From an uncultured virus (IMG/VR IMGVR_UViG_3300042868_013692) (lineage: Duplodnaviria; Heunggongvirae; Uroviricota; Caudoviricetes), in IMG/VR virus record IMGVR_UViG_3300042868_013692: 64,000 nt of DNA; one strand, written 5' to 3'. The notes under the pieces were generated by a model that worked only from the letters and a program-made list of their open reading frames with translations, made no database searches and had not been told where the DNA came from. Positions 19,269 to 56,894 of this stretch are shown piece after piece (positions within the stretch are counted from its first letter, which is position 1; every line of letters starts with the position of its first letter). The translations under genes were made by a program, and so were the position numbers.

Positions 19269-19550
19269 GTGTTTAGGAGCGCAATTTCGGAAGTTTTAGA
19301 TTGCTACCAAACTGACTCGCTCATTAAGAATACAACAGATCTACTAGATAAAAACCTTGGACATTCTAACTGGATAGAAGATATCGGAGAAAACCCAGAA
19401 GGAACTGCTGAAGCTTATACCAAGTTGTATAAAGACTTAGACTTAAACAAGTTTTGGACTCAAGTAGGACTAACTGTAACTGTAGGAGAGAACTGTAGGG
19501 TTGCTACTGAACAACCAGAGGATGATTGTTTTATAGGGAATAGACAATGA
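19269..19550 (+). CDS. hypothetical protein
   Basis: Stop overlaps the next ATG (ATGA); start uncertain. Confidence 0.55.
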   Translation: MFRSAISEVLDCYQTDSLIKNTTDLLDKNLGHSNWIEDIGENPEGTAEAYTKLYKDLDLNKFWTQVGLTVTVGENCRVATEQPEDDCFIGNRQ

Positions 19551-20635
19551 AGAGAACTGAAGTTGAACAAAGAGCAATCTTTATAGGTTTAGCTGGTAGT
19601 CATGGTTATGGTTTAAACCGTCCCGAATCAGACTACGACTATCGAGGTGTGTTTATTGCCCCGAAGTCCTACTATCTAGGATTTAATACCATTGAGCAGA
19701 AGGATGCTGGCTGGGATGAACCAGGGCTGTTTCCTTTTATAGATGGCAATGAAGACACTGTAATTTATGAGTTAAGAAAAGTTACTCAATTACTGGCTAA
19801 TGCTAACCCCAACGTCTTAGAGCTGCTATGGCTAACAAACTACCCCTTCAAGAGTGAAGTTGGTCAGCATCTGATAGACCACCGTGACCTCTTTCTCAGC
19901 AAGAAGGTAAAGCATACCTACACAGGTTACGCATTTGCTCAAATTAAGAAGATAGAAACTCACCGCAAGTGGCTTCTAAGCCCACCTAGCAAACAGCCTC
20001 TCCCGTCAGACTTTGGTATTACTAATGAAGAACCCTTATCAAAAGAAGAGCTAAACGCGTTCTTAGAATATCTTTACTTGTTAGTGAGAGGCAAAGTTGA
20101 GTACCTGGAAAAGTCGGAAGAGTTATACAAGCTCCTCACTGCCGATATTGACTTTAAAGGTCTGTTAAAACAGCACCCTCTACCTGACGACACTCTAGAG
20201 TATACAGAAAAGCTGACTTATGGGCGTAAAGACTTTATCAGACTTCTTCAGAAGAGCCAGGGCTACCACAACGCTTTAAGAGAATGGAATGCTTATCTAT
20301 CCTGGCAGAAGAATAGAAACCCTGCTAGGGCTGGTATGGAGCGGCTGGCTGGCTATGATCTTAAACACGGAATGCACTGCATTAGATTGTTAAAAGGTGG
20401 TGTAGAGATTCTGCAGGGTAAGGGAGTCTTGGTTGACAGAAACCTGGCTGGTGATGCTGCTGAGTTAAAGGCTATCTTAAAAGGCGACTACTCCTATGAG
20501 GAACTAAAACAACTGTCAGAAGACCTGCTTGCCCAGATGATTGTAGTGTACGAGCAATCAACACTGCCCCACCACCCTAACCAAAACAAGATTAATGACC
20601 TGTGTATGGAACTAGTAGAAATGCAAGGTTGGTAG
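19547..20635 (+). CDS. Pol-beta superfamily nucleotidyltransferase (YcgL/RlaP-like)
   Basis: GSHGYGLNRPESDYDYRGVF (hGS...DxD), ANPNVLELLW, GYDLKHGMHCIRLL. Confidence 0.88.
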   Translation: MKRTEVEQRAIFIGLAGSHGYGLNRPESDYDYRGVFIAPKSYYLGFNTIEQKDAGWDEPGLFPFIDGNEDTVIYELRKVTQLLANANPNVLELLWLTNYPFKSEVGQHLIDHRDLFLSKKVKHTYTGYAFAQIKKIETHRKWLLSPPSKQPLPSDFGITNEEPLSKEELNAFLEYLYLLVRGKVEYLEKSEELYKLLTADIDFKGLLKQHPLPDDTLEYTEKLTYGRKDFIRLLQKSQGYHNALREWNAYLSWQKNRNPARAGMERLAGYDLKHGMHCIRLLKGGVEILQGKGVLVDRNLAGDAAELKAILKGDYSYEELKQLSEDLLAQMIVVYEQSTLPHHPNQNKINDLCMELVEMQGW

Positions 20636-23645: not shown

Positions 23646-24155
23646 TTAGAAGCCATCAATATGGCTGCGGCACAAAGCCCAGTCAATAATATCGGTGTGA
23701 TTAAACGCGAGTTTTTCCTGCTTCCATCCATTCCTAGTTACTTCCATCCACTTAACTTCTGTGACCTCAGAGCTAGTTTTTAGTTCTGGGAGTTCTTCTA
23801 CCTTGCAATTAACAATAAATCGCAGCGATACCGTCTCGTTTTCGCTCGGATTGGGGTCAGACATAACCGCATCTGGCTGAGGATTTCTATTGAAACAAAA
23901 ATCAGACAATTTTATGCCTAATTCCTCAAGAACCTCTCTTTCAGCAGCTTCATAAGCAGACTCGCCCCAATCTAGAAAACCGCAAGGAATACCCCAGTGT
24001 TCTGGATATAAATTTAATTCTTTTGAGCGTTTACCGAGTGGCACATAGGTCAACCCTTCGCACTTAAACAATGGGATAACCACCACCGCTACGCTGCGGG
24101 ATATCCAGTAATTTTTGCCGTCTTCGCCTTTGATTTGAAAATTTGGAGTTGACAT
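23646..24155 (-). CDS. Nudix hydrolase
   Basis: Nudix box GFLDWGESAYEAAEREVLEELGI; LAFNH. Confidence 0.92.
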   Translation of the reverse strand: MSTPNFQIKGEDGKNYWISRSVAVVVIPLFKCEGLTYVPLGKRSKELNLYPEHWGIPCGFLDWGESAYEAAEREVLEELGIKLSDFCFNRNPQPDAVMSDPNPSENETVSLRFIVNCKVEELPELKTSSEVTEVKWMEVTRNGWKQEKLAFNHTDIIDWALCRSHIDGF

Positions 24156-33319: not shown

Positions 33320-34114
33320 TTAATACATAAACTTGTTGCTGTTTTCAAATTTTGCCCGATAAATCGAGATATCAGTCCATCTTGTTAGTGGCGCAGAGCT
33401 ACCACTAACAATCAACTCATTGGACTGCTGAAGAAACCAATCAGTGTTTACCTCAAAGCCAAAATGCTGAGAGGGAATATTCAGTTTTTCCGTGATATAG
33501 GCGACAGTTTTGCGCTGTAACCTGATCAAATTATCAACTGCACCATAATTAAGCTTATTTAAAATTCCCCTGCCACCAGCAACGTGCAAAAATTCATCCT
33601 TTGCAATCATTTCGCTAACCCACAACAAGGAATGTCCGCCCAGCCGCAGAAGTATTGGCAGCGAACAGCCAAGGAACACGCCAACCTCTAAAGTTGATGA
33701 CTTTTGCAAAGGATGCCCTCCCGCGCTTTTCCACTCTTCATTAATTAGTGCAGCCTCATTCCGATGCCAATCGGACACCGGATATGTTTGTAAAGCGTAT
33801 TTAATTTGATGTGCGTGAACCGCCTCATCTTTTATAAATGCCTTGAGAAGTTTCCCAACAATTCCGTCCGTGGTTTTTTCATCAAGCTTCCTGATAAATT
33901 CACCAATATATGCACCAACCTCAACTTCTAGTACGTCTGCCAAAGATAGCACCCTAGAAATTGTTTCAGAGATTCCAAAATCACCACCAAAGGTATATTC
34001 GTGCGCGTCGAGTTCTTGCGGTGTCCAGAAGTGCGGTGACCCATTTTCCTTGCATTTAAAATCATACAGATTTTGTAAACTTACACTATTCTTTTGCTGA
34101 GTTAAATTCATCAT
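33320..34114 (-). CDS. ferritin-like ribonucleotide reductase small (beta) subunit, compact cyanophage type
   Basis: Carboxylate motifs LEVEVG, DEAVH, LEVGVF, DEFLH; adjacent to the alpha gene. Confidence 0.8.
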   Translation of the reverse strand: MMNLTQQKNSVSLQNLYDFKCKENGSPHFWTPQELDAHEYTFGGDFGISETISRVLSLADVLEVEVGAYIGEFIRKLDEKTTDGIVGKLLKAFIKDEAVHAHQIKYALQTYPVSDWHRNEAALINEEWKSAGGHPLQKSSTLEVGVFLGCSLPILLRLGGHSLLWVSEMIAKDEFLHVAGGRGILNKLNYGAVDNLIRLQRKTVAYITEKLNIPSQHFGFEVNTDWFLQQSNELIVSGSSAPLTRWTDISIYRAKFENSNKFMY

Positions 34115-34147: not shown

Positions 34148-35908
34148 TTAGCCTTCGCCGCAAACCATACAAATTTCCTCTTCGCATTGGGCTGTCATTG
34201 CAATACCCTTATTTAAATACTCCTGATTTACACTATCTGCCATTTGATAGTATGTTGTTGGCAATGGCGATCGCAATGTAAAATCCTCAAACCAGTCTTT
34301 GTCTATTCTACGGTGAATATCAAAACTACCCGCATGAGCCAGTCCAGTGTATTCAGCGAGAAGTTGAAATTCCTCCCACAAAAGCTGAATAGTATCATGC
34401 CCAACCTCGGACATAACCTCAACATCTCCATGCTCTGTAATTGCATCTCCGTATACTTCTGATGCACGAACTTGTGTGCGAGAGTATGGTGGATTTATAT
34501 TTCTGCAAGTTGTAAACCCATCAATATCCTTGTAATCCAAATAGACACGCTGGTTTGGTTCAATACTATAAATTCTTTCTAAATTAAATTCTCCGCCTAT
34601 CTCAGCCCCCTTTTCATAAGCAGTTTTAAGCCATGACGCAATTTCTACTCCCTTATAGCTGCCACCATTATCAAGATATTTGATAGTATCATTCAATCTT
34701 AACGCTCTCATGCTGTTGGCGCACTCTAGATAGGTTACGCCCTGCCTTCTTAGGAAATTAGCCCAACCTAACCAACCAACAGCAATCTGCCTGTCCTCGT
34801 TTGCCGGCAGATATAATTCTGGGTTTGCATTAACAGCATCTCGCCAAGAATAGTGAATTAAAGCAAGCAACTTGACAACGGCACATAATGCCTCTGGCAA
34901 ATCTTCGGGCTTTTCAATTTGCCCAGCATTTACTGGGGACACCAAACAAGAAGCCTTATCTTCTAAATAAATACCCATACAGACATTGGCATACAGACCA
35001 GGTGCTTTTATTTTTTCTAGCATCAAGGACTCGTTGTTAACTTTTTCTATCACCAAGTTCACCAATTTGGTGTTTGAAAATATCTCCGAAGAGTATCGGA
35101 GACCTTTTTTACTTCCGCCCAAAATTTTGCTTAATGGATAATTTAAATACTCTTCAATATCTGGATTTGTGTAATCCATCGCGGTTGTTACAATCCCGCC
35201 CCGTTTTTTTGTCGTCCCACCACGAGCTAGAACTTTACAGATACCATTTAAAAGCTGTAAAACGCTACCAACGTCGCCACTCTCAATACATTTAGCCAGC
35301 CACCGATATATTTCTATAAACCCTGTGTCTGTGCTGCCAAGCCCAAAAATACCCGTGCTGACAGTTTTGGTAGAGGTCTGCTCCCCAGCCTGTCTAATTG
35401 CAGACAAATCCAAAAATATTTGTTTGCCTAGCAAGGCTGCATCAATAAAAGATCTCCAACTACCCTCAATTGAATCCATATCGTCACCGACAAAAATAAT
35501 TGCAACATTTTTGTCGGAAGACATATTTTGCTTCTCTAAAATTTCTCCCCATTTTTGCTTATCTACATATACCTCCTTGTTCTCTTGAGACATTTTATCA
35601 ATGTCTGGATGGCTTGGATCACAGTAAAAATTCCAAACTATAGGGACAGCTTCCCAAAACACAACCTTTTCAGCACCAAACTGAATTTTAACTCCTGCAC
35701 CTTTGCGGATGTAATATGATATTGCACTTACCATCGCGCCTAGACCTATTTTTTTGTCCCAAACACGAAGCATACAACTAGGGGCGTTAGTTTTATACTC
35801 TGGATTTAAAATAAAATCTTTAATTCTGCCTGTTGGGGCAACGTACTGAGAGTCAAGCAGGGATTGAATTTCTGGCGAAACTCTTGTAGCATTTTTTGTG
35901 TCTGTCAT
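34148..35908 (-). CDS. divergent minimal ribonucleotide reductase alpha subunit (cyanophage, clade-O-like)
   Basis: PTGR..PSC, GAGV, RGG, YANVCMGIYL..ASCL, DRQIAVGWLG, TTYY, C-terminal CMVCGEG. Confidence 0.8.
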   Translation of the reverse strand: MTDTKNATRVSPEIQSLLDSQYVAPTGRIKDFILNPEYKTNAPSCMLRVWDKKIGLGAMVSAISYYIRKGAGVKIQFGAEKVVFWEAVPIVWNFYCDPSHPDIDKMSQENKEVYVDKQKWGEILEKQNMSSDKNVAIIFVGDDMDSIEGSWRSFIDAALLGKQIFLDLSAIRQAGEQTSTKTVSTGIFGLGSTDTGFIEIYRWLAKCIESGDVGSVLQLLNGICKVLARGGTTKKRGGIVTTAMDYTNPDIEEYLNYPLSKILGGSKKGLRYSSEIFSNTKLVNLVIEKVNNESLMLEKIKAPGLYANVCMGIYLEDKASCLVSPVNAGQIEKPEDLPEALCAVVKLLALIHYSWRDAVNANPELYLPANEDRQIAVGWLGWANFLRRQGVTYLECANSMRALRLNDTIKYLDNGGSYKGVEIASWLKTAYEKGAEIGGEFNLERIYSIEPNQRVYLDYKDIDGFTTCRNINPPYSRTQVRASEVYGDAITEHGDVEVMSEVGHDTIQLLWEEFQLLAEYTGLAHAGSFDIHRRIDKDWFEDFTLRSPLPTTYYQMADSVNQEYLNKGIAMTAQCEEEICMVCGEG

Positions 35909-36086
35909 TGGAATTGAAAAATGGTTATCAAACAATTATATTGTAAAATTGAAAATTTATTTTTAAGGACTTCAAAAACCAAAGCGAAGATTCACTATAT
36001 ATTTTTTGAAAAATATATAGTGAATCTTCTATAAAAATGTAATAATATTATTTTGTAGCTCAATTATACGACCAAAGGAGAAAATA

Positions 36087-40644: not shown

Positions 40645-43600
40645 ATGGGGAACTTTACTAGCATCGGCAAAAACTGCCCAATATGCAACGGAAGAAAAAA
40701 ACGCTGCTCCACTTTAAGCGATTCACTTTCGCAAGTAATCCAATATCACTGCAGAGAAAATATTGAGCTACCAAACTACAAAAATCTCGGTCTTTCATCC
40801 ATCGGCTTCTATATGTATAGTCCGATAGATATTGATGGCGAACAAAATCAATACAAAAACACAGAAGAATATATTCCAACAATCTCCCAAGAGGAACGCC
40901 AAAAAGCGCGAGAAGTAGCAGAAAAAGAAGCATTTCTTGCTGAGGAATATCATAAAAACAGAATTTCACAACAATTAAGCCCAAAACAGAGGCACATTGA
41001 GTACGCAAAAATGCTCAAATCAATGAGCATAAGTGACATACATAAAGGACACCTAAACGGAACAAGAGGTTTTTTACACGAACAAATAGAAATCAATGGA
41101 TACAGATCGGTTGGCAAATTTGAAGCCGTAGATCCATCTATATCCCCAAAAACTCCTGGTATTTTTGTAAACTACCTGGGAGAAACGGTAATAAATTATG
41201 GCGGGAGGGGGATTCTCCTTCCTGTACGCGACCTAGATCAAAACATCGTCGCATTTCAAATTCGCAATACCGAAACACAGAAAGACAAAAATAAAAGTGG
41301 CGAAGACTTCGGCAAGTACCTATGGTCGGGATACCCACAAACACTTAAAACAGGCGCTGAAAATAAGCGTCTGTTTTATCCAAGCATACATTTACCAGAG
41401 AATGGTGAAAAACCTCTTCATATCGCAAATCCGCACAACCTTAAAGATGTTGAAATGCTATATCTGGCAGAAGGTGTATTAAAGCCAGATATAGCAGCAT
41501 ACAGATTTGAGCAGGCCATTGTAGGTTCTCCTGGCGGATCGTGGTACTCCTCACCAGAACAACTTTTTGCAGCTATCAACTACTTTAACACAAGAAATGT
41601 TGTTTTGTATGCTGATGCAGGGGCGATTATAAATTCTAATGTGATCACGATCTACAATCGGGTCAGACAATTACTTGAGAATGAGGGGATTGACTTTAAA
41701 ATCGCATGGTGGGGTCAAATTGCGAAAACTGAAAGCAAATTTTTACAAAGTGGTCCACAATTTTCTGACATTGACGAGCTTGACGGATTCCATCCAGGAT
41801 TTGGTCACAGTAAGCCAGACTTTGAAAAAATCCAATATCTAACATGGGATCAATGGATAGATTTGGCGTATTCAGAAGAAATTATCGCCAAAAGACCCAA
41901 AAAAGATTTTAAAACTAATTTTGTAAAAGAATCAGAGGCAAGAGAAAGCCTACAGGAACTTATAGATGGCGTAAACGGAACAAAAAACAAGGCGAAATGG
42001 TGGGAAAATTACAAAAACCTCACCCAAAGAAAAAAACCAATCTTTGCTGCGGAAAAACCAGACAACATTGAATTGCCAGTATTTGATCAATCAATTATTG
42101 ACGATTTTGCATTCGGATCAGAATTTGAGGAAGACAGAAATTTTACCCCAAGGCAAGATGATGAGAGTGAATCATCTTGCCATGAAGAACAAAAAGGAAA
42201 AAATACGGCAGAAAACAATGCCGTAAACTTTGACATATCTGACAAGAAAAAATTCAATACCTGGAAGCGCAGAATTGAGTACACACCAACCCATGAGTTC
42301 AACGATCCATACGTAAGCATTGATCGCAAAATAGAGGCAAACAGCATCTACACAATTAATTCTGGATTAGGGACAGGGAAAACTTGGTGGGCTTTAGAAA
42401 TGCTCAAAGAAATGGATGCGCCATTCCTCTACGTCACCTTCAGAAATTCCCTTTGTGAGCAATTCATCGAACAGTGCAAAAAAAGAGGCATTGAATGCTC
42501 ACACGGGAACGAAAGCGGCTTCAAATACCAAAATGACACACAAGTTTTCCAGGGCATGGCATTCTGCATTGACTCTTTACACAAGGTTTCCCTACCAAAT
42601 CTTGACGGCAAAATCATAATCGTGGATGAGTCGTTCAGCACGATACAGGAGATGATGACCAAGAAAAGCCTAGAGAAAGGCAGAGTTAGGCTGCTTGAAT
42701 TTTTCAAGGAATCTCTTAAAAAATGTGCTGCCGCAATCTTCATGGATGGTCACTTAACAGACAGCCTTGCTGACTATGTACATCAACTCGCGCCAGAGAA
42801 AAAAATAATCAAATACAAAAATAACTTTCAAGGAAGAAAGTTTGATATCACTTTTGTTAATGGATCTTACGACGACATAGCCAGCGACTATTACACCCAA
42901 GAAGAAATAAACGCTGGCACGAGTGAAAACGGCGAGAAAATTAAAATAAAGGTGCGCGATCGCTCACCTGTTCTAAATGCAATCAACAACTCAATTGGTA
43001 ATATCTGTATTGCAACAGATAGCTTAAACCAATCAATGTCCCTAAACCAAAGGCTAAAAGACCAGGGAAGATTCGGGCTTGTTGTAAACAGCATCAGCTA
43101 CAGGGAAAACTGGCTTTTATGCGCTGCCGATCCAGAGTCATCGGTGCAAAACTTCATCAAAGATGTAGACGGGTTTATTGAAAAATACAAACTCGAATAC
43201 CTGATTTACACCCCAACAGCAGAGGCAGGGATAGACATCTCTATCCACAAACGCATACCTAACTACTTCACTCACCAATACTGCCTATTCTTTAACGTAA
43301 TTGGTACATTTGGACAATCGCAAATGATCGCTCGATTGCGTGACCCAGAATGCCCACGAACAGTTTGGCTGTACCCACACCCAATGGGTACAGACTACGA
43401 GTACACAGGATGCTCAACCAAAGAGTATAGAAACATATTCCTGACGCAACAAAAAGCATACTTAATTCAGATGCGAAAGGATGCTGAACTTCAAGGGACA
43501 CCAATCAACGAAGTACAAATGCTTGTTGAAGCTTCAAAAAAAGTTGTTGAAACAAGCACTTTTGAAGAGATTCACTCAACATTATGCTCCGATTTAATTT

Positions 43601-44826
43601 TAAAAATTAAATATGAGAAAAGTGAACCTCGCGGGTGCTTGTTAAACATTCTAAAAAGCTCTGGACATAAAATTTTAGAGGTAGCACTTTTAGAGTCCAA
43701 GCAAGCTACAGAACTCAATAAAGAGGCTTCTGATAATTTCAAAAAAGAAGAATCCGCAAATATAGCACAAGCAGAGGTGCTAGACTCCAAACAATATGAT
43801 CTGGAATCGGCAAAAATAAATATATCAAGCGCGACAAGATACAATCTTGAGAAAACTGGCATCAACTTCATAGTTCCAGGTATTACAGACAAATCTATAT
43901 GGGATGCAGATTTTGTCTATCACGTAAAATATGGCGACAGGGCATTTTTAAGAGGGCAAAATAGATTCTACCTCTTCAACAACCAAGATGCCTTGATGAA
44001 GTATGAATTGAATAGACATAAAAACAACGTTTCCTATGCAATATTTAGCAACAAATACGAAAGCGTGACATTTGATGTAAACAATCAATATACACAAATC
44101 AGGCTCTTACAGGAAAGCAACATCTCTTGGTTTTTAAATCCAGATAACAATTGGTATGTAAAAAATGAATGGTTTGATGATTTTAATGGCACAAAATTTA
44201 TTAATAAAAGCAATGACCCAGTAGCACAAAAAGTATTTGATTTCTTGATATTTTTCAACAAAAATTTAGAAATTTTTGGTAAGCAATTCCCAATCAAGAA
44301 AACAGCAAAATCAAAAAACCCCGCATCGGCAGCCACAAAACAAATCATAAAAATTATTCAATGGCTGGGGCTAAAAGTCAAATCCAAGAAATCAAGCGGA
44401 TTTAAATACTCGATTGATCTGCAATCTTTCAGCCCATATCACCAAGCTTGCCAAGATTGCCTCAAGGTCAAGTATAGCGATATCAAAGTACAAACAATAC
44501 CCGACACAATTATTGAGAAGGGAGCGACGGTGTTCAACCTAGAGGTTGAACCCGCAAAAGAGCCGGACAAAGACTACAAATACACTTATCCATACGAGGT
44601 ATTTAAGGCTTTAGAGGTGGTATGGCAAGATCAATACAGCATTTACGCCATACTCCAACAATCAATGCCAGCGGTAGTTTCTGCACTAGTTTCCATACCC
44701 AACAGCTTCTACGGCACGACATCAGCGAACTATCTGAAAGATATCATTACCTGGGGTAACAAAAATCTAGCGAAGCCTGACGAGAAAGTGACGATAATAG
44801 AGAACGAAAAAGTCCCAATTGCTTAA
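40645..44826 (+). CDS. large replicase: Zn finger, Toprim-like primase and SF2 origin-binding helicase (CyRepA1-like)
   Basis: CPICNG; LAEGVLKP...YADAG...IAWWGQ...DIDE; SGLGTGKT; IIVDE; YTPTAEAGIDI; QMIARLR. Confidence 0.8.
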   Translation: MGNFTSIGKNCPICNGRKKRCSTLSDSLSQVIQYHCRENIELPNYKNLGLSSIGFYMYSPIDIDGEQNQYKNTEEYIPTISQEERQKAREVAEKEAFLAEEYHKNRISQQLSPKQRHIEYAKMLKSMSISDIHKGHLNGTRGFLHEQIEINGYRSVGKFEAVDPSISPKTPGIFVNYLGETVINYGGRGILLPVRDLDQNIVAFQIRNTETQKDKNKSGEDFGKYLWSGYPQTLKTGAENKRLFYPSIHLPENGEKPLHIANPHNLKDVEMLYLAEGVLKPDIAAYRFEQAIVGSPGGSWYSSPEQLFAAINYFNTRNVVLYADAGAIINSNVITIYNRVRQLLENEGIDFKIAWWGQIAKTESKFLQSGPQFSDIDELDGFHPGFGHSKPDFEKIQYLTWDQWIDLAYSEEIIAKRPKKDFKTNFVKESEARESLQELIDGVNGTKNKAKWWENYKNLTQRKKPIFAAEKPDNIELPVFDQSIIDDFAFGSEFEEDRNFTPRQDDESESSCHEEQKGKNTAENNAVNFDISDKKKFNTWKRRIEYTPTHEFNDPYVSIDRKIEANSIYTINSGLGTGKTWWALEMLKEMDAPFLYVTFRNSLCEQFIEQCKKRGIECSHGNESGFKYQNDTQVFQGMAFCIDSLHKVSLPNLDGKIIIVDESFSTIQEMMTKKSLEKGRVRLLEFFKESLKKCAAAIFMDGHLTDSLADYVHQLAPEKKIIKYKNNFQGRKFDITFVNGSYDDIASDYYTQEEINAGTSENGEKIKIKVRDRSPVLNAINNSIGNICIATDSLNQSMSLNQRLKDQGRFGLVVNSISYRENWLLCAADPESSVQNFIKDVDGFIEKYKLEYLIYTPTAEAGIDISIHKRIPNYFTHQYCLFFNVIGTFGQSQMIARLRDPECPRTVWLYPHPMGTDYEYTGCSTKEYRNIFLTQQKAYLIQMRKDAELQGTPINEVQMLVEASKKVVETSTFEEIHSTLCSDLILKIKYEKSEPRGCLLNILKSSGHKILEVALLESKQATELNKEASDNFKKEESANIAQAEVLDSKQYDLESAKINISSATRYNLEKTGINFIVPGITDKSIWDADFVYHVKYGDRAFLRGQNRFYLFNNQDALMKYELNRHKNNVSYAIFSNKYESVTFDVNNQYTQIRLLQESNISWFLNPDNNWYVKNEWFDDFNGTKFINKSNDPVAQKVFDFLIFFNKNLEIFGKQFPIKKTAKSKNPASAATKQIIKIIQWLGLKVKSKKSSGFKYSIDLQSFSPYHQACQDCLKVKYSDIKVQTIPDTIIEKGATVFNLEVEPAKEPDKDYKYTYPYEVFKALEVVWQDQYSIYAILQQSMPAVVSALVSIPNSFYGTTSANYLKDIITWGNKNLAKPDEKVTIIENEKVPIA

Positions 44827-49823: not shown

Positions 49824-50342
49824 ATGACACACACAAAGAAAATGATTAATTACAGACCCGCTGGTACAAACCTTTTCCTAGAAAAAACTGAGTCAATTGT
49901 AAACGCTGTAAATTGTCAGGGCATATCTGGTTCAGGCATAGCATATTTTGTTTCCATCAAGTTTCCCAAAGAAACCAAAGTTTACGAAAGAATGTGCGCC
50001 GATAAGGCGATCGCGCCTGGGATTGTCGGTGTAATACCCGCGAAACCAACCGCAGGAAACCCAAACATCAAATACATTTTCGCGCTCCCCACAATCGGCA
50101 CATTTCAAGAATTCAATAAGCTAGATTACGCAGGGAAATTGAACCTTGTAAAAATTGGCTTAGAGGATTTGAGACGGGTGTTGCTAACCATGCCCGAATT
50201 AAAATCAATATCTATCCCTGCCCTTGGGTGCGGTGTAGCTGGGCTAAAATGGGGCGATGTGAAACCTATTATCGAGGAGTTTTTGAGCGATGTACCACAA
50301 GATGTATTTGTAATTGAACCCCGCGACAAGGGCAAGGAATAA
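49824..50342 (+). CDS. macrodomain protein (DarG-like ADP-ribose glycohydrolase)
   Basis: SIVNAVNCQGISGSGIA...KFP; SISIPALGCGVAGLKW. Confidence 0.88.
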   Translation: MTHTKKMINYRPAGTNLFLEKTESIVNAVNCQGISGSGIAYFVSIKFPKETKVYERMCADKAIAPGIVGVIPAKPTAGNPNIKYIFALPTIGTFQEFNKLDYAGKLNLVKIGLEDLRRVLLTMPELKSISIPALGCGVAGLKWGDVKPIIEEFLSDVPQDVFVIEPRDKGKE

Positions 50343-53276: not shown

Positions 53277-56200
53277 TTATGCGATCGCTAATGCAGCCTG
53301 TTCTACGGCTTTTAATTCTGGTGTAGTCATGTAATTATTATAGGCAGCCAAGAAACTCATATTCCCGATAAATGTGCGATCATTTACACCATCTCCGCCA
53401 ATACATTGGTATCCCTGGCTGCCAACACGATTACCAAAGCCTCTGCCTGTGTAAGAAGGGTGTAGTTCCGATCCAATATTCACACTGTCGACTCTTAGTG
53501 ACGCTTTCCCAGTATTAGGGTTAAAAGTTGCCGAAACAACAGCCCAAGTCCCATTTTTTCCGTATTCTTTGAATAGATTATATTGCTGGTTATTCGCACC
53601 GTAATTCGCTAGTAATAAACTATTATAAACAAACCCAAACACAGCTAGATTCCCTAGCGTCAAAATGTATTGAAATACTCTTCCGTTCGTGCGATTAATA
53701 ACCGCAACGCAGGTAAATCCACGAGATATGTCAATTGGGCTTGAATCAGGCAAAACAAGCCTTTTGTGATTGTCCGTAAACCTGATTGTCGGCAGACCTC
53801 TTCGCAAAGCAGTCCCATCCGATGTTGGATTTTGACCTGTGGGAGCAACAACGTCATTTCCGTATCCACTCTGATCATTCCAACGAGTGACAATATTCCC
53901 AGCGTCAACAATCACCCCAGTATCATGGCGTAGTAGCAATACAGGTCTGTAGACGTTTGCAAAAGTGGCTTGCGCTGGGGCTATTCGTGGTTCATCGCCT
54001 TTAACAATCATGTACTGAGGAATGGTTATTGTTTTACCAGCGTCCGCAGAGTTACAGATTAAAGTTCCGGTAGATCCATTCACCACGATTTCGTTAATTG
54101 CTGGGACAATAGCATCATTGGTGCGGACTGTCGCTGGAGTTCCATAGCCTGATATTTGGGCAGAGATAGGAATAACTTCTACATCAAGCCATCTAAAAGA
54201 AGGATCTGGGTTAGAACCACCGGCAGAAGATTTGCTCACTATTGCAGAATAAGGTTCTGCTGTAGAAATGGTAAGAGTTTCAGATACCGTTATTAATTCC
54301 GTTGGGCGCAAGTATGTTGATGCTTTAATTGATACATTGTTGATATTGTCTTTTAGTACACCCAAGCAAACCACCTGAGTGTACCAATTCCCAGAAACAA
54401 AGCCTAAATTACCCAATTCTGTGAAATTAATAGTTAGTCCATCAATCAAGGTTTCCGTTGCTGCATGAGTCGGCTTGCCAGTTCTAGTAGCTTGAACCCA
54501 TGCCGTGCCATTCCATGTTGGATCTGCCGACACCCAGGACGAAGTCCCCGGATTCCAGTGGAATGTCTCCCACACAAAGGGATTAAATACATTGCTCGTG
54601 TTTATTCCTGCACCAGTAATTCCTGTTATTCTGTTTGCGTTGCCATATTTGTATATATAGTCACCGCTTTTATCCTTTTTCGATCCAAAAAATAGTCCAT
54701 CGCCCAACCAGCAAACACTATCCCATATACTGTTGTATCTACTGTCTACCTCTGTCTGGTGCTGAAATAGAGTTGTTTTCCCTTCTTTAATGAATTTACC
54801 CGACAAGAGATACCCATTCTCGTCCAATATCGGAGTATCTCCTAGCAAGCCACTTGAATCGAAATCATTGTTGACAATCCATTCGCTAGTTGTTGTACCA
54901 AAAGTGAGAAGTATCCCTGAGTGTGTCCACGTAGGGGTGGGGATGCTTGCGCTATACCATTGTCCTTTAGGAGAGGAAACGAGATATTTGGGCGAAGCTT
55001 GCCGTAGCGACAAAGCATTTGTATTAGTTGCTCCAGCAACACCAAATCCGTATCCGTTGGCAATACCACCAGATAAAGTCCACCACCATACAAGTGCGTT
55101 GTTATTTGATTGAGTGCCGAATAGAGCTATTCTATTGGGTGCTGATTTGTCGGCAGTGATAAACCAAAGAGATCGATTGTCGCTTGAGTTGAGGTTTGAT
55201 AGAGGGAATGTGAAAGTTAAATTTGTGTTCCAGTCTTGGCTATTTCGCAGGGTGAAAATTGCTCCATCCCAAAATAATGCGTACAGAATATTAGAGAATC
55301 CAGCACTAACACTTCGACACCCTGTAGTGACCAAATTAATAACTGCTGAGGAATTTCCAGGCGTTATTTCCCATAATCCGGTATTGTCACAGGCCGCATA
55401 TATTTTCCCAGTCGCCAGAACAAATTCCACATGACGAAGTGCTGTGACAGGCAAGGAAGGTTGTGTGCTGGAGTCCCAATCCTGGTGATCTCCATTGACA
55501 AGATTTATTATGCTTATCCCTGTACTGTCATGTCTGATAATTTGAGTTTTACTGTAGGCAATATCATGAGTTGTCTCTCCCGTGCCAGCATGATATCTGG
55601 GATAAGGCTTTCCGTTTGCAAGATTATTTTGGTGGGTAAAGATTGTTGCTAGTTCTATGTAATTAAAAGCATTGTCGTTGAAATGTGTCACTCTGCTTCT
55701 TTGAAAAACATAAGTAGCAGTACCTATAGAGCCAGAGTTTAGGATCTCAATTCTGTAAAGTTCGGGAAAATTATCCGCCCAAGAGCCTTGTATATTTGGT
55801 TTTCCACTGCCACTAGCCAAGTTGTTGCTATCTTGGAAAGGTAATGTGGCACTATTCCCATGTGAAAACATATTTTGGAACGGCGTGGATGTAGATTGAT
55901 AATTAATGCTGCCAAATAGTTTACTTACAGTTCTCCCGGCAATTCGATCTCTTGACGGTTCTGCTTGATATCCAGTCCCTATCATCGTGTAATATCTGCC
56001 TACCGATTTTGTATTTGGCACTGAAGCGACAAAATCATATCGAGCTGCACCATACGCCTGTGTATGAACTTCCTCAGAATCATCGCTAAATTTGCGTACA
56101 CCATCCCCATATACAAAAAAGTTAAGGCAAGACTTATTTGCCTCTTTAAAATTGCCATAAAGTAGCGGGAAAACAAAGTTGCGGATAGATGTATAAAAAG

Positions 56201-56894
56201 TTGAGTTCCACGAAAATCCATTCGCTCTATTTATGGCATAAATCATGTCTTGGGAAATAGCAGGAACATTGTTATAGCCAGAGTAACTGCTAGGAAGCCT
56301 GATTCGGTAAGTAACGTCAATGATTTCATTCTTTTTCTGCTGGATGTTAGAGCCAATATCTATATAAGCCCATATAGCACCAGATGTTCCACTGTTAGCT
56401 TGAGCGGCTGTGTGATCAATTGCTGAAGCGATGTTAGTTAATGCTATCGTTCTGAAAAATCGGTCAAAAGCAATGTTGGAGGGATACAAAGATCCCACAA
56501 ATCCCAGTCTTTGTGATATTGTTATTTCTTCAACTATTCCATCATTATTGAAATCAATATAATTAGTTTTTGGACCAATGTTAATGGTATCCGTACTCGC
56601 AGTCCCAATAAAGTTACCAATCCAAAATAAACTACGCTTCCCATTCCCAGGTGCTTCTGTGGAAAAAGAAATATTAAGTGAGGTTAGCCAAGGCAATATT
56701 ATTCCTCCATAACCAATGTATTCATTTGCGTATGTACTATGTCTAGCGGTATAAGCTTCATTTATGAAACGATCAGTAATTGTATTTTCCTGTGTAATAG
56801 TTTGCCGAACCTCAAGAGTTTTAGCGTCTTTAATTTCTATTGTAAATTCGCCTTCTAATCCACCAAAATAATTAACAATTTGATTATTTTTCAT
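53277..56894 (-). CDS. large virion structural protein with propeller-like middle and LamG-like C-terminus
   Basis: 1205 aa, Gly/Asn/Thr-rich; WNDQSGYGN and FIGNMSFLAAYN motifs. Confidence 0.7.
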   Translation of the reverse strand: MKNNQIVNYFGGLEGEFTIEIKDAKTLEVRQTITQENTITDRFINEAYTARHSTYANEYIGYGGIILPWLTSLNISFSTEAPGNGKRSLFWIGNFIGTASTDTINIGPKTNYIDFNNDGIVEEITISQRLGFVGSLYPSNIAFDRFFRTIALTNIASAIDHTAAQANSGTSGAIWAYIDIGSNIQQKKNEIIDVTYRIRLPSSYSGYNNVPAISQDMIYAINRANGFSWNSTFYTSIRNFVFPLLYGNFKEANKSCLNFFVYGDGVRKFSDDSEEVHTQAYGAARYDFVASVPNTKSVGRYYTMIGTGYQAEPSRDRIAGRTVSKLFGSINYQSTSTPFQNMFSHGNSATLPFQDSNNLASGSGKPNIQGSWADNFPELYRIEILNSGSIGTATYVFQRSRVTHFNDNAFNYIELATIFTHQNNLANGKPYPRYHAGTGETTHDIAYSKTQIIRHDSTGISIINLVNGDHQDWDSSTQPSLPVTALRHVEFVLATGKIYAACDNTGLWEITPGNSSAVINLVTTGCRSVSAGFSNILYALFWDGAIFTLRNSQDWNTNLTFTFPLSNLNSSDNRSLWFITADKSAPNRIALFGTQSNNNALVWWWTLSGGIANGYGFGVAGATNTNALSLRQASPKYLVSSPKGQWYSASIPTPTWTHSGILLTFGTTTSEWIVNNDFDSSGLLGDTPILDENGYLLSGKFIKEGKTTLFQHQTEVDSRYNSIWDSVCWLGDGLFFGSKKDKSGDYIYKYGNANRITGITGAGINTSNVFNPFVWETFHWNPGTSSWVSADPTWNGTAWVQATRTGKPTHAATETLIDGLTINFTELGNLGFVSGNWYTQVVCLGVLKDNINNVSIKASTYLRPTELITVSETLTISTAEPYSAIVSKSSAGGSNPDPSFRWLDVEVIPISAQISGYGTPATVRTNDAIVPAINEIVVNGSTGTLICNSADAGKTITIPQYMIVKGDEPRIAPAQATFANVYRPVLLLRHDTGVIVDAGNIVTRWNDQSGYGNDVVAPTGQNPTSDGTALRRGLPTIRFTDNHKRLVLPDSSPIDISRGFTCVAVINRTNGRVFQYILTLGNLAVFGFVYNSLLLANYGANNQQYNLFKEYGKNGTWAVVSATFNPNTGKASLRVDSVNIGSELHPSYTGRGFGNRVGSQGYQCIGGDGVNDRTFIGNMSFLAAYNNYMTTPELKAVEQAALAIA

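Follow-up and report, generated by a model that had tools for sequence, protein, structure and literature searches.

A phage class-O-like ribonucleotide reductase with a glycine in place of the finger-loop glutamate and a candidate relocated glutamate in the phosphate-binding loop

The window analysed here is a 64,000-nucleotide stretch of DNA from an uncultured virus (IMG/VR record IMGVR_UViG_3300042868_013692), which carries on its minus strand, at positions 34148–35908, a gene for the alpha subunit of a ribonucleotide reductase (RNR). In the encoded protein, P0001, the glutamate that closes the finger-loop motif NxCxE is replaced with glycine, and another glutamate stands directly before the proline of the phosphate-binding loop. 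We consider it likely that P0001 is the alpha subunit of a working class-O-like (class I-type) phage RNR, in which the general base/acid glutamate now sits at the strand end leading into the phosphate-binding helix and no longer on the finger loop. On the evidence of the alignments and trees described below, the swap of the two glutamates is a recurrent, compensated relocation and not a single-origin oddity or an artefact.

The list of open reading frames (ORFs) and their translations gives a 586-residue protein starting with the ATG at 35908; an alternative in-frame TTG start lies nine codons upstream, at 35935. The finger-loop DNA, TAT GCC AAT GTC TGT ATG GGT ATT TAT TTA GAA GAT AAG GCT TCT TGT TTG, translates to YANVCMGIYLEDKASCL. 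Its motif N308-V-C310-M-G312 (34973–34987, minus strand) retains the thiyl-radical cysteine, while the canonical glutamate has become Gly312, encoded by GGT at 34975–34973. The phosphate-loop DNA, TAT AGT ATT GAA CCA AAC CAG CGT GTC TAT, translates to YSIEPNQRVY. This contains the motif I449-E450-P451-N452-Q453-R454 (34547–34564, minus strand), in which Glu450 (GAA, 34561–34559), the proposed relocated general base, lies just before the invariant proline. In a HMMER alignment with 7urg_A (E 7e-38), NVCLEVYLPSRGTCL and FAIAPTASCSY stand opposite the two stretches, placing Gly312 at the position of the canonical glutamate and Glu450 at that of the alanine preceding the proline. A previous sequence-only reading of this DNA had picked out both motifs, NVCMG with its GGT codon and IEPNQR, and had named NVCLE and IAPTAS as their cyanophage counterparts. 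The DNA and the alignment bear out the former, with glycine and not glutamate at the canonical position, and the cyanophage motifs agree with 7URG and with PMC9669993 (section 2.5).

A 586-residue protein 100% identical to P0001, as well as homologues at 83–85% identity, contain both motifs, which rules out the sequencing error that the same reading had judged improbable. Decay, its other concern, is likewise ruled out: both motifs are kept in relatives, and the ratio of nonsynonymous to synonymous substitution rates (dN/dS) is 0.087 in the only one of 15 pairs whose dS is not saturated. A literature search, outside which most subscription journals and supplements lay, found no description of the variant.

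Relatives were collected by a word-indexed search, which gave 19 sequences at 28–100% identity, and by an exhaustive HMMER search of 1.84 billion representatives, which gave 231 matches at E ≤ 0.001; the counts that follow are based on the best 150 of these 231 matches plus the word-search relatives. With the beta subunit and a duplicate of the query left out, 165 alpha sequences were aligned. States were read from the alignment columns; picking motifs with regular expressions was dropped, as it took the wrong phosphate loop in many rows and produced 19 apparent 'double-null' sequences. The alignment of the loop is secure because Pro451 is present in all 165 rows.

Four of the 165 rows are gapped in column 312 or 450, leaving 161 in which both can be read. 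Among these, 86 relatives (the canonical state) have C-x-E on the finger loop and a residue other than glutamate before the proline (84 Ala, 1 Ser, 1 Lys). The other 75, sharing the swapped state of P0001, have glutamate before the proline and only small residues standing in for the finger-loop glutamate (70 Gly, 4 Ala, 1 Ser). None of the 161 has both glutamates in columns 312 and 450, and none has neither. Over all 165 rows, column 450 holds 85 Ala, 77 Glu, 2 Lys and 1 Ser; P0017, a misaligned member of the four incomplete rows, reads CVE and KP in a smaller alignment. A scan of all columns gave a mutual information with the state of 1.0 for columns 312 and 450 only, followed by 0.67 for the next best column. 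Glu316 and Asp317 (in IYLED) were considered as a replacement acid on the finger loop itself and rejected, as their columns vary among swapped relatives and only column 450 tracks the state. Seven swapped rows (for example P0020 and P0038) show, beside the glutamate before the proline, an extra glutamate directly after the radical cysteine (C-E-G or C-E-A), whose side chain should point the other way.

In the 11 closest swapped sequences (43–85% identity), Glu450, Pro451, Gln453 and Arg454 are invariant. Gln453 is uncoupled from the swap, being found in 66 swapped and 20 canonical rows and missing from 6 swapped rows, and Arg454 occurs in 28 of 165 rows. Of the loop remodelling described earlier, Glu450 is coupled to the swap, and Gln453 and Arg454 are not. 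The changes in the stretch Asn452-Gln453-Arg454 (34547–34555) arose either before the relocation of the glutamate or independently of it.

Phylogenetic trees were constructed from barrel residues 205–575 after removal of the motif regions 306–316 and 447–456. The FastTree tree of 156 rows, from which nine fragmentary rows were dropped, requires five changes of state, and its branches with support of at least 95 alone force five; shuffled labels need about 52. An IQ-TREE tree (LG+G4, short search) was built from 90 hand-picked rows: 47 of the 84 canonical ones, 25 of the 49 that make up the largest swapped clade and 18 of the 23 remaining swapped ones. Six changes are required on this tree, three of them forced by starred branches. 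The best tree with all swapped rows in one clade was rejected by the approximately unbiased test (difference in log-likelihood 164.8, p 1.9e-6). In five of five independent pairs both positions change jointly, and Gln453 changes in none of the five. The swap occurs on two loop backgrounds, namely E-P-x-Q-x beside canonical A-P-T-Q-x, and E-P-T-A-S/T beside canonical A-P-T-A-S, the E-P-T-A-S/T background consisting of the six swapped rows without Gln453. Since the trees are unrooted, gains and reversals are indistinguishable; the presence of the finger-loop glutamate in classes I and II suggests that it is the older state. The proposal of the sequence-only reading that the glutamate of IEP compensates for the lost one is strongly supported by these sequence comparisons, namely by the exclusivity in 161 of 161 relatives, the repeated switches and the restriction of position 312 to small residues.

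The fold of P0001 was predicted with AlphaFold2 (AF2) from 111 aligned relatives, with a mean predicted local distance difference test score (pLDDT) of 92.2 and a predicted template modelling score (pTM) of 0.91. The model contains a strand at 445–449, then Glu450-Pro451 and a helix from residue 455. A Foldseek search with the model returned 7urg_A as the top match (E 2.8e-26). VIA-align superposed the two with Z 43.2 and a root-mean-square deviation of 2.9 Å over 388 of 401 residues, as compared with Z 25–30 for class Id, class Ia and eukaryotic alphas. At the sequence level, the family profile (A2) matched 7urg_A with E 5e-145, and the next PDB family followed at about 1e-13 (class Id 6DQW, 1.2e-13). 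PHROGs names both the alpha and the adjoining beta as RNR subunits. Together with the ORF, the 7urg_A match and the AF2 model identify the gene as that of a class-O-like, long-form RNR alpha.

The AF2 model, Foldseek and VIA-align agree on a ten-stranded alpha/beta barrel with a finger loop, at whose tip the radical cysteine follows an asparagine (N-x-C); this cysteine is conserved in 158 of 158 filled rows, and residue 308 is Asn in 139 and Gln in 15 of 165 rows. Cys45 (PSC, 35774–35776, minus strand), a reducing cysteine on strand betaA, is Cys in 149 of 150 filled rows. It falls onto Cys30 of 7URG in the VIA-align superposition of model residues 41–561 on chain residues 26–426; Cys30 belongs to the active-site disulfide pair of that enzyme (PMC9531940 section 8). 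The second reducing cysteine, Cys321 (ASCL, 34946–34948, minus strand) on strand betaF, is Cys in 162 of 162 filled rows and aligns with the cysteine of GTCL in 7URG. The Tyr553-Tyr554 dyad (TTYY, 34247–34252, minus strand), assigned to radical transfer from beta, is Tyr-Tyr in 163 of 165 rows and aligns with the tyrosine dyad of 7URG; class O alphas have such a dyad on betaJ and a CXXC or CXC at the C-terminus. It is followed by the C-terminal motif C580-M-V-C583 (34160–34171, minus strand), a redox shuttle with Cys580 in 153 and Cys583 in 161 of 165 rows. Cys45, Asn308, Cys310, Cys321, Tyr553/554 and Cys580/583 are conserved in relatives down to about 25% identity. What P0001 lacks is the glutamate of NxCxE (the equivalent of E. 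coli Glu441), as do the 75 swapped relatives; of the class O motif NVCLE it retains NVC. No ATP-cone family match was found in P0001, whose length of 586 residues compares with a class O average of 412 (PMC9531940). The class III signature PF13597 had no match in the record nearest to the window (G001, a 138-kb virus contig used for genome-level scans) or in four relatives' records. By the family profile, P0001 is most closely related to class O, yet it is without the NXCXE motif said to be common to classes O, I and II.

As the sequence-only reading had also noted, alongside the cysteines in PSC, NVC and ASCL, the tyrosines and the CxxC motif, an intact beta gene adjoins that of alpha. It lies 33 bases downstream (33320–34114, minus strand) and encodes a ferritin-like subunit of 264 residues (phrog_6799, 6e-20). 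All 43 unique betas keep the metal ligands E63, E97, H100, E143, E174 and H177. At the site of the tyrosyl radical these 43 have Leu (38), Phe (3) or Ile (2), the window beta having Ile104. The betas have a tyrosine at or next to the C-terminus, and Tyr264 is the last residue of the window beta. These properties are those described for the small partner of class O (about 240 residues, E/D+EXXH twice, an inert tyrosyl site and a terminal Tyr; PMC9531940). In 53 of 57 viral loci, beta follows alpha downstream in the same orientation, and each of five phage records carrying a swapped alpha has one beta. The two genes do not adjoin in two complete genomes of relatives, where beta lies 2.4–3.2 kb downstream of alpha (L004, 8186–8959; L005, 9007–9744).

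The window has the gene content of a phage, including terminase, baseplate protein, helicases, RecJ, clamp-loader subunits, Dam methylase and HU. No thioredoxin or glutaredoxin gene was found among its 46 ORFs of at least 106 residues. The genomes of two relatives, G003 (121.8 kb) and G004 (119.2 kb), are complete and end in direct terminal repeats, and the swapped alpha is the only RNR found in them: neither has an NrdD, and the sole PF02867 signal in G004 is the swapped alpha, no PF02867 match being scored at all in G003. Swapped forms were encountered in uncultured viral contigs (6 of 57 loci), in protein clusters of metagenomic origin and in one contig of a metagenome-assembled genome (MAG). 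The scan of cellular genomes for a swapped alpha gave this single 9.3-kb MAG contig (L058), with an intein. In the collection of sequenced phages, 56 of 56 matching records align only from query residue 106 onward, so no long form is present among them. Microcystis phage Mic1 is canonical (NVCLE, VAPTAT), motifs having been read in Mic1 and S-CBP4 only. In P0010 and P0011, an intein (PF14890) is inserted exactly at NV|C, before the radical cysteine of a swapped alpha. Many representatives of 700–1313 residues match the query in two or three stretches, suggesting more inteins.

These features are consistent with a catalytic mechanism analogous to that of class I enzymes. In the proposed pathway, the small ferritin-like beta, whose metal ligands are intact and whose tyrosyl site is redox-inert (Ile), a trait of class O and class Ic, would make the oxidant. 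The radical would then pass from the C-terminal Tyr264 of beta via Tyr554/Tyr553 of alpha to Cys310, and the Cys310 radical would abstract the 3'-hydrogen of the substrate. Glu450, directly preceding the phosphate-loop proline at the C-terminal end of a barrel strand, would take up and return the 3'-OH proton in the space freed by Gly312, while Cys45 and Cys321 would supply the electrons for nucleotide reduction. Finally, the resulting disulfide would be re-reduced by Cys580 and Cys583. That Glu450 may reach the ribose 3'-OH is made plausible by work on related enzymes. In classes I and II, the finger-loop glutamate forms a hydrogen bond with the ribose O3' and has been proposed as the general base, as reported for E. 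coli Glu441 (PMC4728125) and human Glu431 (PMC5819950). The substrate phosphates bind the residues after the proline, namely Thr604–Thr607 in the human enzyme (PMC5819950) and Ser622 and Ser625 in that of E. coli (PMC4728125). Human RRM1 has Met602 before Pro603, and in a docking study (PMC9496582) this methionine touches ligands that form hydrogen bonds with Glu431 and Asn427 as well, which is weak evidence in that it comes from docking only. In the thioredoxin-type class III enzyme of Thermotoga maritima, the putative proton donor Glu495 is far from the finger-loop motif at 328–331 (PMC9669993), and the alpha and beta phosphates of the substrate bind the N-terminus of helix 499–514 (PMC4493059). 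Glu495 thus lies four residues before the phosphate helix and Glu450 five before the helix of the model, which would put both at the same strand-to-helix junction, a topological correspondence taken from residue numbers in the papers and not from a superposition.

Several points weigh against a relocated general base. No class O RNR, canonical ones included, has been characterised biochemically (PMC9531940 section 8; PMC12918982). The Pfam RNR barrel family PF02867 scores P0001 at 19.8 bits, below the gathering cut-off of 23.9. Nucleotide binding could suffer from a carboxylate placed so close to where the phosphates sit. The other changes in the loop, at Asn452, Gln453 and Arg454, are without explanation, and the parallel with class III is topological. 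Statistically, the sign test on the five independent pairs gives p 0.0625, the lowest value that five pairs allow, and the counts of relatives come from the best-scoring part of the HMMER matches. On the other side, a reciprocal exchange of glutamate and a small residue, the lack of any double or null state and several independent switches are what would be expected if one carboxylate is needed in the pocket and can be supplied from either wall. The conserved radical and redox residues, the co-encoded beta, the low dN/dS and the inteins placed at the radical cysteine are further signs of a working enzyme.

In a different, improbable view, which takes up the other option of the sequence-only reading, the radical machinery is kept and the chemistry or substrate is altered. 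The protein might reduce nucleoside triphosphates (NTPs) and not diphosphates, or carry out another radical reaction on a nucleotide-like substrate. Glu450, Gln453 and Arg454 would then give the phosphate pocket another shape, perhaps one that binds a metal-nucleotide complex, and would not replace the general base. The whole loop does differ (E-P-N-Q-R versus A-P-T-A-S). With Arg454, the phosphate helix holds a basic residue in its first turn, reminiscent of Lys501 in the class III enzyme of T. maritima, which takes triphosphates (PMC4493059), and PMC12918982 gives the substrate of class O as not known. However, neither Gln453, which is present in canonical rows, missing from some swapped ones and constant across the five pairs, nor Arg454, with its narrow distribution, follows the swap. 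The strict one-glutamate pattern fits replacement in the same role better than a new pocket, and the genomic surroundings are those of ordinary phage DNA replication.

Glu450 could also be merely structural or electrostatic, with water, a substrate phosphate or a small carboxylate such as formate serving as the base. Most class III RNRs are without a protein glutamate and use formate (PMC4390871), and Gly312 opens a cavity. We regard this as a slim possibility, as a merely structural residue would not be expected in 75 of 75 rows without the finger-loop glutamate and in none of the 86 with it, and as Cys45/Cys321 and the C-terminal CxxC point to thiol-based and not formate-based reduction. Loss of a residue that the PASV preprint treats as essential would be natural in a catalytically dead homologue kept for another role, like some herpesvirus R1 homologues with mutated active sites. 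Such a role is very improbable for P0001, given that relatives as distant as about 25% identity keep every other residue for catalysis, radical transfer and redox chemistry, that a beta with intact ligands is co-encoded, that the lost glutamate is always compensated, and that dN/dS is low. Both a formate-type base and a dead enzyme fit poorly because Glu450 is always present where the finger-loop glutamate is missing and because the radical path and beta are conserved.

Apart from the two loops, P0001 differs from 7URG by an additional N-terminal segment. The profile alignment and the model place it at residues 78–134 approximately (35507–35677, minus strand), between beta-alpha-beta units at 45–77 and 135–167; it is absent from 7URG. 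Long-form relatives of about 560–600 residues, canonical and swapped alike, have two beta-alpha-beta units where 7URG has one (window 35375–35803, residues ~36–178). The first unit keeps the active-site Cys45 and GAGV, and the second keeps V-x-D...SIE-SW and LS-x-R-x-G. Residues 33–66 of 7URG align twice to the family profile, within profile positions 10–66 and 112–546, and it is this double alignment that suggests a duplication; BLASTP of P0001 residues 36–80 against 126–178 found no similarity. Elsewhere in the window, a 1205-residue ORF (53277–56894, minus strand) has no Pfam or PHROG match, and a 1393-residue ORF (40645–44826, plus strand) has a weak origin-binding/replication match (PF02399, phrog_4913). 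Further ORFs encode a Macro domain protein (49824–50342, plus strand), a NUDIX hydrolase (23646–24155, minus strand) and an RlaP-type nucleotidyltransferase (19547–20635, plus strand).

The swap bears on how viral RNRs are surveyed. In the PASV preprint, four RNR residues count as immutable, the glutamate that follows the radical cysteine among them; the filter requires N437, C439, E441 and C462, and 286 of 29,401 RNRdb representatives lacking any of them were removed. A virioplankton survey of 2026 applies the same residue filter and discards non-matching sequences as bycatch or non-functional. Since such filters need E441, the pipelines would drop swapped RNRs, and a large set of viral RNRs has probably been discarded in surveys. 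The two positions amount to a clean natural experiment in how a radical enzyme relocates a catalytic residue, and swapped class-O-like RNRs link the glutamate arrangement of classes I and II with that of class III. More tentatively, and with some doubt, we raise the idea that RNRs can shift their general base in the course of evolution. A single aerobic, ferritin-dependent lineage would have moved its glutamate several times between the finger loop and the strand end in front of the phosphate helix, the latter being where thioredoxin-type class III enzymes have theirs. If this were true, the NxCxE glutamate would be no universal signature of classes I, II and O, and about half of class-O-like diversity would be unseen by residue-based filters. 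The class-O-like clade might then preserve both solutions inherited separately by the anaerobic and aerobic classes, which would bear on the base used by the ancestral RNR.

Among known systems, the best match in both sequence and structure is the class O alpha of Synechococcus phage S-CBP4 (7URG; Burnim et al. 2022, PMC9531940). P0001 shares with it the 'NV' before the radical cysteine, the tyrosine dyad, the C-terminal CxxC (a feature of class O and class I; PMC9531940) and, as far as family matches show, the lack of an ATP-cone, and its beta resembles that of class O in being small, redox-inert at the tyrosyl site and terminated by a tyrosine. It differs in having NVCMG where S-CBP4 has NVCLE, a motif found in 30 of 35 class O sequences, NXCXE being described as common to classes O, I and II (PMC9669993). 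It also has E-P-N-Q-R instead of A-P-T-A-S, and 586 instead of 470 residues, the extra length of about 115 including the second N-terminal beta-alpha-beta unit. The class Id alpha of Flavobacterium johnsoniae (6DQW) is of similar size, has no ATP-cone and is the second-best structural match (Z 30.1), but it has the canonical glutamate and A-P-T-T-S and is far more distant in sequence than 7URG. With class I and II alphas such as E. coli NrdA and human RRM1, P0001 shares the ten-stranded barrel (Z 25–30), the asparagine, the radical cysteine, the reducing cysteine pair and the invariant proline of the phosphate loop. In contrast to them, it has Gly where Glu441 or Glu431 hydrogen-bonds the ribose O3', and it falls below the PF02867 cut-off. 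Thioredoxin-type class III enzymes (NrdD2 of Neisseria bacilliformis and T. maritima) resemble it in a putative proton-transfer glutamate off the finger loop, before the phosphate helix, and in reduction by a cysteine pair. Class III enzymes have a glycyl-radical domain, are anaerobic and use NTP substrates, whereas the P0001 family has a tyrosine dyad and a ferritin-like beta.

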